Shown: positions 3,503-14,113, counted from the first letter of the stretch. The stretch is 64,000 nt of DNA from an uncultured Verrucomicrobiae bacterium (GCA_963825315.1 CAWGST010000001.1:1877460-1941459); one strand, 5' to 3'. A program made the numbers and translations. The notes: generated by a model from the sequence alone, not told the origin.

Positions 3503-4174
3503 CTATTTTAAATTTTTCGGCGGCGTCAACCCGCCGGCCAACCTTGCAAAACTTGGAATTTCTTTCACGGCCACCGTTGCCTCGCGAAGTGTTCTTTTCA
3601 CTTCTTCCGGCAAAGTTGCCAAATTTCCATCTTCAAAATAACTCAGTGCTTTCAAAGTAATCATCGCATTAAACTGTTCGCCGTAAACCGCCTGCGCCGC
3701 GCCGAGCATTTCCGGAAGCGTAACCCCGTTTCTCAAGATCGCATGGACATCCAAATAATCTTTTGCTTCCGGGCGCTCCTGCACGACGGCCATTTTACAA
3801 GCGGCCACATCAAGCAGGGATGCGATTTGCATCACGCCATCCTCGCTCCACTCCGGGTCGCTGACGCGGCCCAAACTCAATCCGCCGAAAAAAGAAATTT
3901 TCACCGGCTCCGGACAGGGCACTGACACAGTCAACGTGTTCGGCGCGATTTGCAGCGCTTCAGCATTCGCTAAAAAAATTAACGCGCCCCGCAACTGAAC
4001 TGGCGCAATCGGTTCGCTCGAAAACAAATCAAAATCGACCAACGTGCGATGGCCCAATCTCAAGGCCAGCGCCGTTCCGCCATAAAGCACGAAATGGCGC
4101 GGCACTTCTTTGAGCTTTGGCCAGAGCGCCCGTTGTGCCGCGGGCAGCATATTTAATCGAGGCGCAAAGCTCAT
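3503..4174 (-). CDS. Nucleotidyltransferase AbiEii/AbiGii toxin-family protein
   Basis: 223-aa ORF. FVLYGGTALALRLGHRTLVDFDLFS matches the AbiEii (DUF1814) NTase core. Its start overlaps the stop of the upstream gene by 4 nt (ATGA). Confidence 0.7.
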   Translation of the reverse strand: MSFAPRLNMLPAAQRALWPKLKEVPRHFVLYGGTALALRLGHRTLVDFDLFSSEPIAPVQLRGALIFLANAEALQIAPNTLTVSVPCPEPVKISFFGGLSLGRVSDPEWSEDGVMQIASLLDVAACKMAVVQERPEAKDYLDVHAILRNGVTLPEMLGAAQAVYGEQFNAMITLKALSYFEDGNLATLPEEVKRTLREATVAVKEIPSFARLAGGLTPPKNLK

Positions 4175-7063: not shown

Positions 7064-7408
7064 GCGCAGACCACGCGAACTCCGGAAATTCTGAAACGCA
7101 AGATGAATAGCCACAGAACCTCACAGATAAACACAGACCCGCCGTCGCTGAAGCTATGGCGGCCAAGTTGGCAAAAAGACCCTCTGCTTGATTTGTGCTC
7201 ATCTGTGTCAATCTGTGGCCCAAGATCCCGCGAGAGACGCAAGATGCTATCGGTCTGGAAAATCGGCAACACGGCAATGGGCCGCCTTGCCGGGTCGGAA
7301 AGAAGACGGCTAAACGCGCCTGAAGTTGGACCCGTGATTCGAACCTGCTCGTGGCCAAACAAAGAAAGGAGCAGGAGTTTAAATAATGAGAACTGACACG
7401 AATGGCAG

Positions 7409-7759
7409 TTAGTTAAGGCCCAACGTCTTGTTACTGAGCTTCTTGCGACGGGTCGTTCCGGGCAAGGTTTGCCACATGTGCTGGAGCGCATAGCGGTGCA
7501 TTTGTTCGAGGATGTTCCAGGCTTTGCGCTGGTTAGCAATGGCGGATTTGAGCCAGGCAAATTGTTCGGCGCTCAGGGCCACGGTGATCGTTTTCCCTTC
7601 CACTCGGCGGGACCACTGGTAGCGCGGGCCGCCCTGGCCGGGGCGGTTGCGTTCCAATACCGTGCCCAAGGCCACCCATCCAATACGGGCCAACTGGCCT
7701 TGCCACCGCCGGTAGGCGGCGGGCAGCGGCTCCAGGGCGGGATCTGATTTCTTTTTCAT
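7409..7759 (-). CDS. Small IS-associated protein (DUF6788-like)
   Basis: This is the last 116 aa of ORF 7409-8413, starting at MKKKSD. It contains the GQGGPRYQWSRRVEGKTITVALSAEQFAWLKSAIANQRKAW pattern, is divergent from the transposase, and its stop codon lies inside the left IR. Confidence 0.5.
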   Translation of the reverse strand: MKKKSDPALEPLPAAYRRWQGQLARIGWVALGTVLERNRPGQGGPRYQWSRRVEGKTITVALSAEQFAWLKSAIANQRKAWNILEQMHRYALQHMWQTLPGTTRRKKLSNKTLGLN

Positions 7760-7774
7760 GCCAAAAAGTCTAGC

Positions 7775-9247
7775 ATGGCCGTCAATAGGACAGTATATAT
7801 GCTGTCTTATATGAACACGCCTGACTTTACCCCTTGGGCCGGCCTCTTCGCCGCCCAACTCCAACGCTTGCGCACCACCCTGGGCCCTTCGATCCACCAA
7901 CTCGAACGGCTCTTCACCGACTGGATTCCCCACTGGCGCCTGGCCCAGCAGGAGGAGGGCGCTCATTCGCGCAACCGTTGCTGGAACCTGCGCTTGGTCT
8001 TCTGGACTTTTCTCTGGCAAATCTCCCAGGCGGGGGCCTCCTGCCGCGAGGCCATCCGCCAAGCCCAGGCCCTTTGTCTGGCCGGCGGCACCCGTCCCCC
8101 GCCCGACACCACCAGCCCTTATTGCCAGGCGCGGGCGGGTGTGCCGCTGGAACGGTTGCAGGACATGCATGCTGGCTTGGTGCAAGAGGCCCGCGCCGCC
8201 ACCGCCGCGGGGGACCTCTGGCTGGGCCGGGAAGTTTTGGTGGTGGACGGCTCTTGTGTCACCGCCCCAGACACGGCGGAAAACCAGCAAGCCTTTCCCC
8301 AGCAATCGGCGCAGAAGCCCGGCTGTGGTTTCCCCATTATCCGCCTGGTTGGCTTGCTCAGCCTGGCCACCGGCCTGCTGGTCGCCTGGGCCACCGGTCA
8401 ATGGCAGCAACACGAACTGACACTCTTACAAACGTTGTGGGATCACTTGTCTCCGGGCAGCATCCTGTTGGGTGACCGGGGATTTTGCTCTTGGGGCCTT
8501 TTGGCCCAGTGCCTGCGGCGCAACGTCGATGCGGTCTTTCGCGTCAAAGGCTCCGTTCGCCGTGACTTCCGCCGCGGTCGGCGCCTGAGCCGACACGAAC
8601 GGCTGGTGCAATGGCGCAAGCCGGCCCAGCGTCCCCGCACTGTCAGTGCAAAAGAATGGAACGCCCTGCCCGAAATCCTGACCTTGCGCCTGGTGCGGTG
8701 CCGCCTGGGCCTGCCCGGCTTCCGCTCCACCCAAGTTATCCTCGTGACCACTTTGCTGGACTCGACGCAATATCCGCCCGCCGCCCTGGGGCAGCTCTAC
8801 TACCGCCGCTGGGCCATGGAACTGACCCTGCGCAACCTCAAAACCACCTTGCAGATGGACATGATGAGTTGCAAAAGTCCCGCCATGCTGGAGCGGGAAC
8901 TGCGCTTGCATATCCTGGTGCATAACCTGGTCCGCCGCCTCATGCTCGAAGCGGCCCGGCGTCACCGGGTTGCTCTGGAACGAATCAGTTTTGCCGGTGC
9001 CTTGGCGGCGGCCCGCCACTACAGCCAAGCCTTGGCTCAGGCCCGCTCTGAGCGCCGCCGCCGACAGTTGCTGGAGGATCTCTTCCGCGTCTTGGCCGCC
9101 GATTTGCTGCCCGATCGTCCGGGCCGTCGCGAACCGCGCGCCGTCAAGCGGCGGCCCAAGCCCTACCCGCGCCTAATGAACCATCGCCACAAGTTTTTGG
9201 AGATTCCCCACCAAAACCGCTATCGTCTTGACACCACCGCCAAATGA
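7775..9247 (+). CDS. IS4-family DDE transposase
   Basis: 490-aa ORF with LLGDRGFCSW and YYRRWAMELTLRNLKTTLQMD..ERELRLHILVHNLVR (the YREK-type C-terminal block of IS4 transposases). Confidence 0.85.
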   Translation: MAVNRTVYMLSYMNTPDFTPWAGLFAAQLQRLRTTLGPSIHQLERLFTDWIPHWRLAQQEEGAHSRNRCWNLRLVFWTFLWQISQAGASCREAIRQAQALCLAGGTRPPPDTTSPYCQARAGVPLERLQDMHAGLVQEARAATAAGDLWLGREVLVVDGSCVTAPDTAENQQAFPQQSAQKPGCGFPIIRLVGLLSLATGLLVAWATGQWQQHELTLLQTLWDHLSPGSILLGDRGFCSWGLLAQCLRRNVDAVFRVKGSVRRDFRRGRRLSRHERLVQWRKPAQRPRTVSAKEWNALPEILTLRLVRCRLGLPGFRSTQVILVTTLLDSTQYPPAALGQLYYRRWAMELTLRNLKTTLQMDMMSCKSPAMLERELRLHILVHNLVRRLMLEAARRHRVALERISFAGALAAARHYSQALAQARSERRRRQLLEDLFRVLAADLLPDRPGRREPRAVKRRPKPYPRLMNHRHKFLEIPHQNRYRLDTTAK

Positions 9248-9293
9248 AAACACCCCGCATTCTCGATGCCTTAACTAACTGCCATTCAGAACT

Positions 9294-9340
9294 GACACTT
9301 GTATTGACACTTGTATTGTATTGTACACTTGTATGTACAC
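9294..9340. repeat. Degenerate 12-bp tandem (GACACTTGTATT x2, then decayed copies)
   Basis: Seen directly in the sequence. The first unit overlaps the right TSD of the IS4 element. Confidence 0.5.
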
Positions 9341-9640
9341 GGGACCCTTTCTCAACCGGAGCTCACCATGACTCCAAATCATCAAAATGTTGACATGCTC
9401 GTATTACTCTGTTAAGTTGCGCAAACTGCGAGTGAAGAATGAAATGTGTTGAAAGAGCAAAATCCGGTCGCCCAATCGCGGTTTTCGTCAATGTTTATGG
9501 GCATTTCATGCTTTTTTTCCGATCTTATACTTAACAAAGTAATACTCGGAACTGACCCGTTCATGGCTGCCCAATACGCAATGCGTCCCTCAAAGTGGCC
9601 GGTTTTCACTGCCCGCTGACACCAAAACCATTCCGGATTC

Positions 9641-10405
9641 TTATTGCGCCATGTTTAAATCAGTTCTGTGTTTTGCAAAATCACAAGGCTTTTTAAACTC
9701 CGCCTCTACAGCCAAATGGCCGTTCCGAGGGTTCCAAATGAAGTATTTGCCGAAAACTAATCCATTTGTGTATTGTGTGAACTGCGAAAGCGTGCCACGG
9801 GTGAAATCAGCGCGTTTGTAATCCCACGTTGAGCCTTGTGGCTTGAGGTCATCGAATGCTGCGAGGAAGCCATTGGCCAAGCCGTGTTTCACCTGCGTAA
9901 ACTGCAACAGCGAGCCGCCGCCCGTCGGGTTGATCGATACATCGTATCCGTCGTTGCCATTGGTGCGAAAACTGGCGAATAGCCACACACTAATTGTCAC
10001 CTCCTCCACGGCTTCTGAATTGGTATATTGGAATCGCGAGACGGTTTTCTCAAAACTGAACAGTTTGCCTCGGGCCTTAACGGTATCGTTTGTCGTATAA
10101 GACCGAACAAGAACCGTGCCAGTCGGACCGACGCTAGCCGTCACATTTGTATATTTTACAAGAACCTCACTAATCAGTTTTTGTTCATCTTCGGTGAAAA
10201 AGTTCCTGTTTGAAAGCGCATTAGAGTATTGAGGCGGACAGGCTACCCCATCACCAAAAAAGTCCGAACCAGTCACTACCACATTACTCTGGCTTTCCAT
10301 GTCCAAGAAAGGAAAGTATTCTCTTTCCGCATGACAGTTCTGGCCGATGAGATTATTGCTCAAGAGGAGCAGACATAACCCAACCTTCACATTTCGCTGT
10401 TTCAT
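9641..10405 (-). CDS. Exported 254-aa protein with MORN/YwqK-like repeats (candidate immunity protein)
   Basis: Has a signal peptide (MKQRNVKVGLCLLLLSNNLIGQ) and the units VKHGLANGFLAAF and YTNGLVFGKYFIW. The gene is AT-rich and starts 11 nt downstream of the large secreted-protein gene. Confidence 0.55.
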   Translation of the reverse strand: MKQRNVKVGLCLLLLSNNLIGQNCHAEREYFPFLDMESQSNVVVTGSDFFGDGVACPPQYSNALSNRNFFTEDEQKLISEVLVKYTNVTASVGPTGTVLVRSYTTNDTVKARGKLFSFEKTVSRFQYTNSEAVEEVTISVWLFASFRTNGNDGYDVSINPTGGGSLLQFTQVKHGLANGFLAAFDDLKPQGSTWDYKRADFTRGTLSQFTQYTNGLVFGKYFIWNPRNGHLAVEAEFKKPCDFAKHRTDLNMAQ

Positions 10406-10416
10406 ATATTTTGAGG

Positions 10417-13400
10417 CTATGGATCACTAGGAGGCAGTTGCAAACCGAAAAATTCTGGTGTGTAGCCGCCCGTAGGGAGCGAAACGCCCGCAGAATTACC
10501 GGCTTTAACAGCTTCATGGATACAATTATGCGTGGAAGAATTCCAAATTCCGGGATTGTTATAAAGATTCTCTGTGTCGTTCAAACCACCGAGCAATCCC
10601 TGAAATCCAATGGCATATACCCTTTGATTATTCGCATCCCCATTATTAGTATCCAGGTACCCAGGCCCCTGTTTTATTGGTGGAATTAGGGAAATGAAGA
10701 CTGCATTACTCGGCGAGTAGCCAACTTGTTGGTTTAACCATTGAGAACAATTTGTCGATGTAAACTGGTTGATCGCCGCAGAGGGAGCGGAATTAAGCAA
10801 CTCCCACCAAGCGTGGCCGCGCCAACCCCGTTTCCATAAACAGGATAACCGGCCGGGGGCCCATAAGGACCGAAATAATAATACGGGTATAATGGCCACG
10901 GCTCGCGCACAAAAACTTCAAAGCATGACTTGTATTTGGTTGCGCCGACCAAATAGGAGTAACGTTGCGGCGGAGCTTGCGGCGTAATATCCATCGTTGT
11001 GTTGTCTGGCAACACGGTAAAAATCTGGCCATTGGCATTTGCTGTTTTGCCATTAACAGTGATTTCATTGCCTGGAACCACTTGAGTGGTCCAGTCTTGG
11101 TTGAACGTGTCGGGTAAGGGTACGGGGAAGGATAAATAAGCCGTCGCTCCGACGTCAATTTCGACCAGATTCTGACGCCCGGCTACTCCCTTGCCACCGG
11201 TCTGAAGTCTCACGGTTGTGGCGGTGTGCAGGTTGTAATCAGTCTCCCCCGATTCCGAACACTGATCCGAGTTGATGTTCCACTCAAAGTGATCGGTTTC
11301 CGACCACTCCTCAGTCCCTAACAGCGGAGGGCCAACGGAGTTTGTTTCATCGTCACCAAAGGAGTCAGTATATACGCATACACCGGGAGCTGTTGGGGAA
11401 TAGGTGTAAACGTACTTATACCAACAGATAGGATAGTCACTACAAGGGCTGGCAAGGTCTGCTGTATAGTATTCTGTTGCCGTCCCGCCAGCCATGACAT
11501 CCCAACAGGTTTGCGACTCAAAACTATCCGTTAGCGTACCTGGGCAGTTCGGGTCACAATTATTGCAATCGGTGGTTGAGCTATTTTCTTGAGAATCGCA
11601 ACTCTGCAAATAAACCATGGTTGGCTGGTCGGTTTGCACCTGGGCGGCAATGCTGTCGCCTGCTGTCGGATTGCCCGGCGTGCCGTCCGATGGCGGTGTC
11701 GTTCCGGTTCCGTTGCCGTTATTATCGGAGTTGGGAATAGCGCGCGCTTCGACCACGGCGGTTCCTCCAGGCCCGAGCGGCACCGAATCGGCTTCCCAGT
11801 TTCCCTGGCCGTCTTGGGTGGCTTGAACTCCGTTCACCCATAACGTGTAATTCGTCAGCGCGATTGTTCCGGTCACAACGGAAATAATGTCGCGCCGGCT
11901 TCCTCCAAGCGCGCTGGAAAAATCGTCAATCGTCAATCCCGCACTGACGGAGTTGATCGTCAGGTTGGTGGTGGAGATGTTGCCGACGGCGTCCATTGCT
12001 GTAAGCGTAACATAATTCGTCCCCGCCAGCAATGGCGCGTTTTCCACCCAGAACAATCCATTGCGCTCGACCAAACCTTGGACGGTGTTGGTGTTGCCGC
12101 TGGAATCCACGATTTGGGCCGTGAGGCTCGCCGTGAAATCATCCAGCGCACCGCGCAGCGTAAACGCGGCGCCGCTGACTTGATCGCCATTCTGCGGCCA
12201 ATAGACCTGAATGGCCGGCGGATTGGTTTTGCCGGAGTAATCCAAAGTATAGGTGAAATTGGTGGTGGTGACGTTGCCTGCCATATCGGTGGCGTGGAAG
12301 GTGACAACATTGTCCCCGTTCGTCAGCGGAACATCGAAAGCTTGGAACGTGTTGGTCGCAATGCTCCAGGTGTTGGTGTCGCAGTACTGACTGAGCACGA
12401 AGGCTGGCTGGTTGCTGAAGAAGCCCGCCGCGTTGTTGAGGTCGAAGGTGAGACTGGCCAGAGGATCGGTGCAAAAGCCCTGTAGTTCGATCATCGGCTG
12501 AATGATGATGCCGGCGGCTGGATTGGTGATGATCAGGACGGGAGGGGTAAGAATGAGCTTGAGCTGAATTTGTTCCCACGTCTGTTGCGCATTCGGCGGC
12601 AAGCCTCTCAGCCCCAGCCAAACCGAATGCCAGCCTTCCACGCTGCCCAAGTTAATGGCGGGATTCGAATTGTAAGGCGTCCAAGTGGCGTCGGAGAAGT
12701 TCGTGCTGTCCACCAGCACAGCATCGTACGAGGGCCAGCCGGCAGAAACGGCAACCTGGACTGCCGCGCTGCTGGTGTTGAAGTATCGGTTCGTCGCGCT
12801 GAGCGAAAAACTGATGATGTTGGGGTCCCAGTTATTTAGATAATCGGTCACAAGCTGCACGCCGCTCGCGTCCAAATTCGTATCCGACAAATCCAGCGAC
12901 CCAAAGAACCACCAGAACCACCACAGCGGGGTTGTATTTCCATTGGCAGTCACGCCTGTCCAATCCTCTGCCTCCATGAACAGATTCTGCCGGTCCAACG
13001 CCTGCACCGTGAAGGGCATCACTCCTGCATTCGTCGGCCACACTTCCGTTTCCACGTTCCACTCCGTCAGCAGATCAGTACCTGCTCCAAATGGCATAAA
13101 CCTGATTGGTGGGATTATTCAAATTCAATGAGACTATGCCGTTGGTGATGCCGGTAATCTGCATCCACAGCCCGTTCGTCGAAAAGAACGCGCCAGAGGA
13201 GGAAACACCCCCACCGGATGAATTCGTGCCGTCGCCGCCACCGCCGGGCGGCGAAGGCGCGACGCTGTCATCCATGGGCCGCATCCCTTCATCACTGCCT
13301 CGTCGCCAGGCCCCTTCCCGTGCTGAATAATCAACCGAACTGTCATCGATCAAGAAGTTGCCTTGGCCGAGTGAATAAACCGGCAAATCCGGAGACCAGT

Positions 13401-13689
13401 CAAAAGGGGTCGGCGGAAAATTCTGAGTGGAATAAAATATGCCGCTTTGCGGTACCGCATCGGGCGGGACTGGCGATACTGAACCCGCGCCCACGAGCAG
13501 CGCGGCAATGGTTTGTGACATCACATCGGGCGGAACAGGCGATGGCGTTCCTGTCTGAGCATGTGAGGAGAAGCTGATTCCAAGAAAAATCGCCAGCACT
13601 ATGGCTTGCCATGCCACCATATTCGTGACGTGAACACCGAACCAGCCCAGGAATTTTCGTTTGAGCGTCTTACTATCAGCAGAGTTCAT
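10417..13689 (-). CDS. Large secreted multidomain protein (~1090 aa if frame breaks at ~13081 and ~10817 are repaired) with LRAT/NlpC-P60-like C-terminal tip
   Basis: ORFs 13075-13689, 10734-13097 and 10417-10899 are contiguous in sense. The product has a signal peptide, a PxP/Gly linker, Thr/Asn-rich beta-sandwich repeats, a Cys-rich module, and a tip reading GHAWWEL..(97 aa)..THNCIHEA. Confidence 0.6.
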
Positions 13690-13846
13690 CAGATTTTACC
13701 TTTGTAAATTGTTCAGTGCAAATTCCGAGAAACGCCCTGTTATGGTGTTGATTACGGGAAGATGCAACCCCTTTTTTGTCTTTTGCGTCTCTTTTTTTGC
13801 CGTTCTCTTCAGTCAAACACAAAAAATATGTGACGCAAAGCCGACA

Positions 13847-14113
13847 TTAGGCTTTTCCAAGAAGCGTTTCCCAAGAGGAGCGTAATGCCCGTTGAATGCG
13901 AATGAACGTCGTGTACAGGATGTCCACACGGCCTGCCTCGATCTTTTGAATCGTCCGTGGATGGAGGCTCGCCATTTCTCCCAACCGTTCCTGGGTAATC
14001 CCTTGAAGCACCCGCTCCCGTCGGATATTGGCTCCTAACGCTTTCAGTTGTGTTGCCCGAATACGATCCAATGGCATCGCAACATTGAGGACATTCCGGC
14101 ACCAAATTGACAC
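13847..14113 (-). CDS. XRE-family helix-turn-helix transcriptional regulator
   Basis: LKALGANIRRERVLQGITQERLGEMASLHPRTIQKIEAGR is a classic Cro/C1 HTH. The likely start is 14077 (MPLDRI). It is co-directional with, and upstream of, the large secreted-protein gene. Confidence 0.75.
   Translation of the reverse strand: MSIWCRNVLNVAMPLDRIRATQLKALGANIRRERVLQGITQERLGEMASLHPRTIQKIEAGRVDILYTTFIRIQRALRSSWETLLGKA

Follow-up and report, generated by a model that had tools for sequence, protein, structure and literature searches.

The 64,000-nucleotide (nt) stretch analysed here (the window; GCA_963825315.1 CAWGST010000001.1:1877460-1941459, part of a 3.04-Mb contig of an uncultured Verrucomicrobiae bacterium) carried at positions 9,641-14,113 an islet that was judged likely to be a polymorphic toxin/immunity locus, for which a mechanism of cassette swapping, thiol-enzyme attack, and inhibition is proposed. 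This reading was preferred because related genes shared a stalk and a pre-tip domain, ended in unrelated C-terminal tips, were followed by a partner gene covarying with the tip, and were accompanied by orphan cassettes; polymorphic toxin systems are defined by this anatomy (PMC3482391). The toxin function of the tip and the immunity function of the 254-amino-acid (aa) partner protein are putative.

An earlier note on this DNA had proposed that three open reading frames (ORFs) became one protein after two 1-nt repairs. The minus-strand ORFs were found at 13075-13689 (204 aa), 10734-13097 (787 aa), and 10417-10899 (160 aa), abutting in different frames in a three-frame translation of 13689-10417; taking one base out near 13081 and putting one base in near 10817 did yield a single 1090-aa ORF with no internal stop, which held every motif quoted earlier. 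Two further minus-strand ORFs, 9641-10405 (254 aa) and 13847-14113 (88 aa), were likewise present. The 1090-aa protein was composed of a Sec signal peptide (MVAWQAIVLAIFLGISFSSHAQ, residues 24-45), a Pro/Gly linker, an immunoglobulin (Ig)-like beta-sandwich stalk, a Cys-rich module, a pre-tip domain of ~100 aa ending in KY, and a tip of ~170 aa. All full-length family members began with Sec-type signal peptides, with N-terminal modules that varied; Big_13 and Glucodextran_B-like domains exceeded the Pfam cut-offs in full-length relatives and were sub-threshold in the window stalk. The toxin-like gene and its partner displayed the following features:

10417..13689, minus strand: toxin-like gene, 1090 aa, predicted Sec-exported and polymorphic-toxin-like; three ORFs in the window assembly owing to two single-base breaks
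13555..13689, minus strand: signal peptide region (residues 1-45) with its hydrophobic core at 24-45, ..SHA/Q; read from the sequence
11967..12542, minus strand: Ig-like/beta-sandwich stalk domains (Big_13, Glucodextran_B-like); sub-threshold Pfam matches
11409..11600, minus strand: Cys-rich module, residues 697-760; read from the sequence
10932..11243, minus strand: conserved pre-tip domain (..LQTGGK..LPDN-DITP..Y..KY), common to all tip classes; probable recombination handle
10420..10931, minus strand: variable tip at the C-terminus (residues 920-1090), putatively a toxin domain with Cys-His hydrolase or acyltransferase activity
10813..10815, minus strand: codon of invariant His959 (GHAWW), 104/104 sequences; beta-strand start in the model
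10522..10524, minus strand: codon of invariant Cys1056 (HNC), 104/104 sequences; N-terminus of model helix 160-170 (tip numbering)
9641..10405, minus strand: 254-aa exported beta-rich protein, putative cognate immunity protein; 95 homologous clusters; downstream of the tip

Variation of tips and partner genes among relatives

The survey of polymorphism was applied to 26 pre-tip domains from the window and 20 distinct loci (compared loci and contigs bear L numbers). The pre-tip domains (~100 aa) shared the consensus ..[LV]xTGGK..LPDN-D[IV]TP..Y..KY; in the alignment of proteins with different tips the similarity ended directly after KY, and the tblastn homology of the window to those L003 genes that carried other tips stopped at 10932, the KY codon boundary. 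The 26 pre-tips led into four unrelated tip classes, and the downstream ORFs, nearly all with hydrophobic N-termini, clustered by tip class or subclass:

GHAWW tips: partner is the 254-aa family
GHAFW tips: partner is a membrane-anchored protein of another kind, ~250 aa long
'CVGQ' tips: partner is a 185-252-aa family
'TLTSY' tips: partner is an RCC1 beta-propeller (Pfam RCC1_2, 7e-32)

The 254-aa family stood directly after a GHAWW-type tip in L001-L009, L013, and L018, wherever it occurred among the loci compared, a GHAWW tip preceded it, and almost all related loci with this tip had it as the next gene; the downstream gene was thus syntenic with the tip elsewhere too. Two GHAWW tips (L010 and L012) were followed by a 118-aa multi-pass membrane protein and by no member of the 254-aa family, and a membrane protein of the 118-aa type also followed a 230-aa partner in L001. 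These multi-pass membrane proteins of ~120 aa (L001 5081-5458, L010 5653-6006, and L012 1013-1366), absent from the window, may be a second, membrane-embedded immunity factor. The RCC1-repeat beta-propellers serving as tip partners carried signal peptides (L010 1121-2164 and 3524-4582; L021); this type of partner recalls the propeller enzyme inhibitor BLIP-II. The RCC1 propeller was the only match returned by Pfam and NCBIfam scans of the alternative tips and partners.

In L003 (a 254-kb contig of a Verrucomicrobiae metagenome-assembled genome), the main gene shared the N-terminal and stalk regions of the window gene, ended in a different tip, and was followed by the gene of a 185-aa exported protein; next came a 403-aa signal-less fragment (pre-tip plus GHAW...NC tip) with a 257-aa homologue of the 254-aa protein, and then a third fragment whose tip and exported protein were different again. 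L006, L010, and L015 displayed the same layout with further tip types. The orphan pre-tip/tip/partner cassettes downstream of the main gene in these four loci were promoterless and had no signal peptide, and within a locus the pre-tip DNA of the main gene and of the orphans was 92-99.7% identical over 280-590 nt. In L006 (5777-8000), an ISL3 transposase had inserted into an orphan GHAWW tip directly behind AGHAWWRLSCG, and the rest of that tip, with the immunity gene, lay beyond the insertion sequence (IS).

Variable tips at a fixed junction, a covarying downstream gene, and orphan cassettes with a homology handle, three characters of polymorphic toxin systems, were all found among the relatives. 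Genes sharing the N-terminal part while differing in tip and downstream gene, for which the earlier note had suggested looking, thus existed together with orphan cassettes, and its swappable tip/immunity cassette was strongly supported by the joining of stalk and pre-tip to at least four unrelated tip classes.

The tip and its partner also stood apart in base composition. The guanine-cytosine (GC) content was 0.578 in the window, 0.551 in the gene body, 0.478 in the tip, and 0.471 in the 254-aa gene, placing tip plus partner gene in the lowest 0.8% of equal-sized windows, and GC at third codon positions was lower in the tip (0.429) than in the body (0.649); the AT-rich segment noticed at first was thereby recovered as a dip in the sliding GC profile at the tip boundary. 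In L003, L008, and L009, too, tips and partners had a higher AT content than the gene body. Because the tRNA scan of 5.5-17 kb was empty, as was the Rfam scan of the same interval, the islet was not marked by a tRNA as an integration site; the promoter/terminator scan gave no difference from shuffled sequence.

The Cys-His tip and the 254-aa partner

In the window protein GHAWWEL lay at 958 and THNCIHEA at 1053, which sets His959 and Cys1056 exactly 97 residues apart. An exhaustive profile search recovered the tip domain in 220 clusters at 50% identity; the tip-bearing proteins were either 900-1900 aa or 250-500 aa long, and in most full-length matches analysed the tip ended at, or a few residues from, the C-terminus. 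A word-indexed search gave only two homologues, both open across the second frame break (see below) and both followed by a homologue of the 254-aa gene, and the word-indexed search with a 67-sequence tip profile gave only 8 proteins and no bridging family. Positions G62, H63, G94, G114, and C160 (tip numbering) were invariant in 104 full-length tip domains, and N159 was present in 73% of them; the His/Cys pair picked out in advance was therefore conserved throughout a diverse set of homologues.

The AlphaFold2 model of the tip, built on a 67-sequence alignment, had a mean predicted local distance difference test score (pLDDT) of 92.3 and a predicted template modelling score of 0.84, and displayed the element order beta, beta(His), four strands, long helix, short strand, helix(Cys), with His at the start of a beta-strand and Cys at the N-terminus of a helix. 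The same element order is found in permuted papain-like enzymes (LRAT/PLAAT, YiiX, and PPPDE). The conserved His N-terminal to the conserved Cys at a distance of ~100 residues, which characterizes permuted NlpC/P60 enzymes, was found here with a spacing of 97; the corresponding pairs are His49/Cys148 in Lnb (spacing 99), His64/Cys172 in TseH (108), and His43/Cys151 in Tox-Act1 (108) (PMC11573676, PMC12994826). Recurrent sub-threshold Pfam matches of tip members fell in permuted papain-like families only: Lnb_N (formerly DUF4105) in 3/67 and 3/52 members and Peptidase_C97 in 1/52, with a best Lnb_N E value of 0.002 and with matches reported only when the E-value limit was relaxed to 0.1-1. The window tip itself had no Pfam match, LRAT included, and its NCBIfam scan returned nothing. 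The tip is probably a Cys-His enzyme working like a permuted papain-like hydrolase or acyltransferase, and it is not filed in that family.

The gene of the 254-aa protein started 11 nt past the stop of the toxin-like gene; both this gap and the N-terminal signal helix of the protein, from which export is predicted, agreed with the earlier description of an exported protein in the immunity position. The family comprised 95 homologous clusters of 200-280 aa, all from Verrucomicrobiota wherever the source named an organism; two members bore a JGI 'YwqK' label, and one was fused to ankyrin repeats. The AlphaFold2 model (pLDDT 90) consisted of the signal helix, a small alpha/beta part, and ~ten long beta-hairpin strands. 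The MORN/YwqK-like units once seen in this protein found no significant support: the window protein had no Pfam match, MORN and MORN_2 included, MORN_2 was matched in 2/61 family members at E 0.037, and the MORN protein junctophilin-2 appeared only at rank 18 (E 0.38) in the Foldseek comparison of the model with the PDB, so that MORN likeness is a weak lead. The model had no significant neighbour in the PDB; its best Foldseek match there, GH97 N-terminal domains (E 0.12), was taken as generic beta-sheet similarity.

Under the proposed mechanism, recombination at the pre-tip domain would swap cassettes, and Sec would export the toxin protein to the periplasm. The tip would act as a permuted papain-like thiol enzyme, either a hydrolase or an acyltransferase, with His959 activating Cys1056 at the helix N-terminus, and would attack an envelope substrate, most likely a membrane lipid or lipoprotein and less likely peptidoglycan; the lipid or lipoprotein target is favoured because of the analogy with Tox-Act1, TseH, and Lnb and because of the membrane-protein partners at some loci. 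The periplasmic 254-aa protein would bind and block the tip, shielding the producer and its kin.

Gene integrity and competing explanations

Two apparent frameshifts interrupted the toxin-like gene in the window assembly:

13079..13083, minus strand: first apparent frameshift, one extra base, context GCAGGTACTGA
10819..10820, minus strand: second apparent frameshift, window without one base of GCGCCGGCC

The exact 254-aa protein occurred on ten other contigs, eight of which were compared, and seven independent assemblies of the locus displayed 99.8-99.96% identity to the window across the locus. At the site near 10820, 6/7 of these assemblies had GGTTGGCGCCGGCCACG and the window had GGTTGGCG-CGGCCACG, a difference of one added base. 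L022, L024, L026, and L027 contained an extra C, and L023, L028, and L029 contained an extra base within the same few positions. The assemblies restoring the frame included four short contigs, namely three Logan contigs from separate sequencing runs and one NCBI metagenome contig, and the corrected reading was G-V-G-A-G-H-A-W-W (GVGAGHAWWEL). Because 6/7 independent assemblies carried the missing base, an error in the consensus of the window assembly accounts for the break near 10820, and the earlier repair at 10817 is verified; and because a 706-aa partial ORF on the NCBI contig was identical to the repaired protein and the other assemblies also matched the repair, the protein sequence reconstructed for the tip is correct.

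The site near 13083 was covered by long-read assemblies only, no short contig spanning it, and these assemblies disagreed: (i) AGCAGGTACTGA in the window and L023, (ii) AGCGGTACCTGA in L022, and (iii) AGC-GGTCCTGA, with the frame open, in L024 alone. This break is probably an error too. All three sites of disagreement among long-read assemblies (13079-13083, 12385-12388, and 10819-10820) contained GTAC or GCCGGC, which suggests false frameshifts from systematic base-calling errors at methylated motifs; the practical lesson is that both 'pseudogene' frameshifts here probably arose at GTAC and GCCGGC sites as errors of the long-read consensus.

The gene body (10500-13500) was hypervariable in two further copies: L007 and L025 were ~95% identical to the window and 92.6% identical to each other, with dozens of indels; third codon positions took a larger share of the substitutions (101/58/54), the flanking mnmG and immunity gene were ~99.9% identical, and Asp replaced the putative catalytic His in L007. 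This hypervariability could reflect mixed alleles, recombination, or a noisy consensus. A diversity-generating retroelement was rejected as its source, since the substitutions were enriched at third codon positions and were not A-biased.

Several results weighed against a toxin/immunity system or against the enzymatic assignment of its tip. (i) No recognised trafficking module of the kind that polymorphic toxins carry was found (two-partner secretion, TPS, of the type V secretion system, T5SS; PAAR/VgrG/Rhs of the type VI system, T6SS; LXG/WXG of the type VII system, T7SS; MafB-N), and the scans of the window protein and six full-length relatives gave no TPS, FHA, Rhs/YD, PAAR, LXG, or other trafficking domain, which agreed with the absence of delivery markers reported at first; only the Sec signal peptide and the Ig-like domains were recognised there as trafficking or stalk parts, and the compared loci had no conserved transporter neighbour. 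(ii) No tip class or partner matched known toxin or immunity families in Pfam or NCBIfam. (iii) No orphan cassette or paralogue was detected within the 64-kb window by tblastn with orphan, partner, and membrane proteins. (iv) The Foldseek search of the tip model gave a best E of 2.5 against the PDB, with no NlpC/P60 protein among the 17 matches listed, and a best E of 0.78 against BFVD, with no significant neighbour; permuted NlpC/P60 structures are already solved, TseH being PDB 6v98 (PMC11573676). (v) Searching PDB sequences with the tip, by phmmer and by profile, returned nothing, and hhalign gave the tip profile probabilities of 1.6% with human PLAAT3 and 0.9% with human DESI2. (vi) No third catalytic residue was invariant among the tips, and the commonest candidate, D/E at tip position 71, eight after His, was Ser in the window protein. 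The PLAAT3 alignment by hhalign was itself discarded as chance, since it picked the non-conserved Cys85 (TSTNCSQWLN). Of the match to LRAT/NlpC-P60 enzymes claimed earlier, the His/Cys order and the spacing stood, and the model had the right element order, whereas Foldseek, the PDB profile searches, and hhalign left membership unproven.

The absence of any matched toxin, immunity, or delivery domain, together with a signal peptide and an Ig-like stalk typical of verrucomicrobial exoenzymes and adhesins, would also fit a secreted or surface-anchored degradative enzyme or an adhesin, used for nutrients or attachment, with the downstream protein as its partner, chaperone, or inhibitor and no weapon involved. 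Such a protein was thought improbable: the signal-less orphan pre-tip/tip/partner cassettes are hard to account for in this way, and the strict covariation of tip class and downstream gene and the compositionally foreign cassettes are hallmarks of polymorphic toxins, not of a metabolic enzyme.

A dead gene, that is, a frameshifted toxin pseudogene left as a relic beside a retained orphan immunity gene, was given an equally small chance. The two frame breaks in the window and the indel-ridden divergent copies in L007 and L025, the former with Asp for the catalytic His, speak for decay, but the break near 10820 was absent in 6/7 other assemblies, four short contigs among them; the long-read assemblies conflicted near 13083, where one frame was open; no further stop occurred in 1090 codons; and each of L007 and L025 was closer to the window than to the other, as a noisy consensus over mixed alleles predicts. 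The comparison at the two sites, with the first open in L024 and the second in 6/7 assemblies, thus gave no evidence of a dead gene.

Surface-protein variation, in which silent cassettes recombine into an expression site and an exposed non-toxic tip changes (for example, in phage or predator evasion), would suit the homology handle common to the silent cassettes and one expressed gene, as well as a gene body hypervariable among otherwise identical genomes, but it was placed lowest, slightly below the other two, as it leaves unexplained both the separate exported protein of each tip class and the invariant His/Cys in enzyme-like geometry across 220 clusters.

Relation to known systems and flanking elements

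The putative toxin/immunity locus was compared with four groups of known systems. Its closest layout was that of Sec-dependent polymorphic toxins (the type II secretion system or 'T2SS' class of Zhang et al. 2012, PMC3482391), in which, as here, no trafficking signal is present besides the signal peptide, the N-terminal part is conserved and joined to a variable C-terminal toxin with the immunity gene immediately downstream, and orphan toxin-tip/immunity cassettes retain a homology handle. The locus differed from that class in that its stalk, pre-tip (TGGK...KY), tips, and partners matched no described family, in that its partners are predicted to be exported while those of the class are cytoplasmic, and in its host phylum, Verrucomicrobiota. 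The CdiA-CT/CdiI and Rhs-CT/RhsI systems likewise exchange tip and immunity gene as a module at a conserved junction, which is KY here, and arrays of displaced orphan cassettes are common to both; unlike them, the present locus had no TPS, FHA repeat, CdiB, YD repeat, PAAR, or VgrG, and its stalk consisted of Ig-like sandwiches. The exchange junctions are VENN in CdiA and PxxxxDPxGL in Rhs. Neisseria MafB/MafI is an example of Sec-dependent polymorphic toxins.

The lipid-targeting permuted NlpC/P60 enzymes Tox-Act1/Imm-Act1 and TseH (T6SS effectors) and Lnb/DUF4105 resembled the tip in having His upstream of Cys, by 99-108 residues as against 97 here, with Cys at the helix N-terminus in our model (PMC12994826, PMC11573676). 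Tox-Act1 and TseH are periplasm-acting toxins with envelope-located immunity, an action that is proposed for the present tip; Imm-Act1 is membrane-embedded (PMC12994826), and a small multi-pass membrane protein was paired with a tip in L001, L010, and L012. The tip differed from these enzymes in showing no significant sequence, profile, or Foldseek match beyond the weak Lnb_N matches, its delivery would not be by T6SS, and the main putative immunity protein is the soluble beta-rich 254-aa protein.

LRAT, the H-RAS-like suppressors (PLAAT), and PPPDE (Peptidase_C97) also have a His box followed by an NC motif, the window motif IWNSSTHNCIHEA resembles YKLTSENCEHF, and the order of secondary-structure elements in PLAAT equals that of the tip model; against this, hhalign gave <=1.6%, no Pfam LRAT match was obtained, and the tip contained large Pro-rich and hairpin insertions.

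Most known polymorphic toxins come from Proteobacteria, Firmicutes, and Bacteroidota, and most belong to systems with defined secretion machines. The same evolutionary logic of swappable cassettes, orphan arrays, and foreign composition would here be found in abundant uncultured soil and freshwater Verrucomicrobiota, with modules that are unannotated: four or more new candidate toxin domains, every one paired with an exported putative inhibitor; a Cys-His tip that may extend the lipid-targeting permuted papain-like group; and a pre-tip domain that provides a defined junction for cassette exchange. The modules are undescribed, while the overall kind, polymorphic toxin/immunity, is already known. 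A bolder suggestion, advanced tentatively and considered rather doubtful, is that the locus would be the first representative of a 'toxin on an Ig-like stalk' system confined to Verrucomicrobiota, with delivery by a route other than T5SS, T6SS, T7SS, or Rhs, with tips (among them the present Cys-His domain, which lacks a structural neighbour in the PDB) and exported immunity proteins of new folds or families, and with TGGK...KY as a new recombination or processing junction.

The islet was flanked by the following elements:

13847..14113, minus strand: XRE-family HTH gene, Pfam HTH_3 E 1.2e-9, 38.4 bits versus a cut-off of 23; co-directional with and adjacent to the toxin-like gene
7400..9287, plus strand: IS4-type insertion sequence, DDE_Tnp_1 5e-23; bounds the islet

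The XRE gene had been taken for the regulator of the cassette, and its HTH_3 domain (1.2e-9) was evident; the gene was not conserved with the system, being restricted to this locus: tblastn found it in L007 only, HTH_3 genes were called upstream in L024 and L025, all of these being copies of the window locus, and at other loci tblastn detected none beside the relatives. The IS4-type element was recovered as described; it had a DDE_Tnp_1 transposase, was bordered at 7400-7419 and 9268-9287 by perfect 20-nt inverted repeats, and lay between the two copies of an 11-bp target duplication (AGAACTGACAC; 7389-7399 and 9288-9298). It was inserted in intergenic DNA ~350 nt downstream of the 254-aa gene, leaving the toxin/partner pair whole. 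The flanking gene on the other side was mnmG, as stated earlier, identified from the GIDA domains of a 99.9%-identical copy.

A long antisense ORF at 7409-8413 (minus strand) overlapped the transposase gene, and only its C-terminal ~55 aa matched DUF6788 (1.2e-8); the IS probably carries a small second gene (DUF6788-like). A segment of ~140 bp at 9402-9541, downstream of the immunity gene, was missing in L007, L022, L023, and L024, with a 7-bp overlap at the junction, and may be a small insertion or duplication. In L023 (5858-10765, against window 7400-9401), the IS end was joined to a ribosomal-protein operon (L16, S3, L22, S19, L2...), while in the window it faced the dnaK side; the L023 junction arose either by an IS-mediated rearrangement or as a chimera assembled across IS copies. 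An AbiEii-type nucleotidyltransferase toxin gene was located at 3503-4174 (minus strand; PF08843, 6.8e-14), ~5 kb from the islet; AbiEii belongs to type IV toxin-antitoxin and abortive infection systems.

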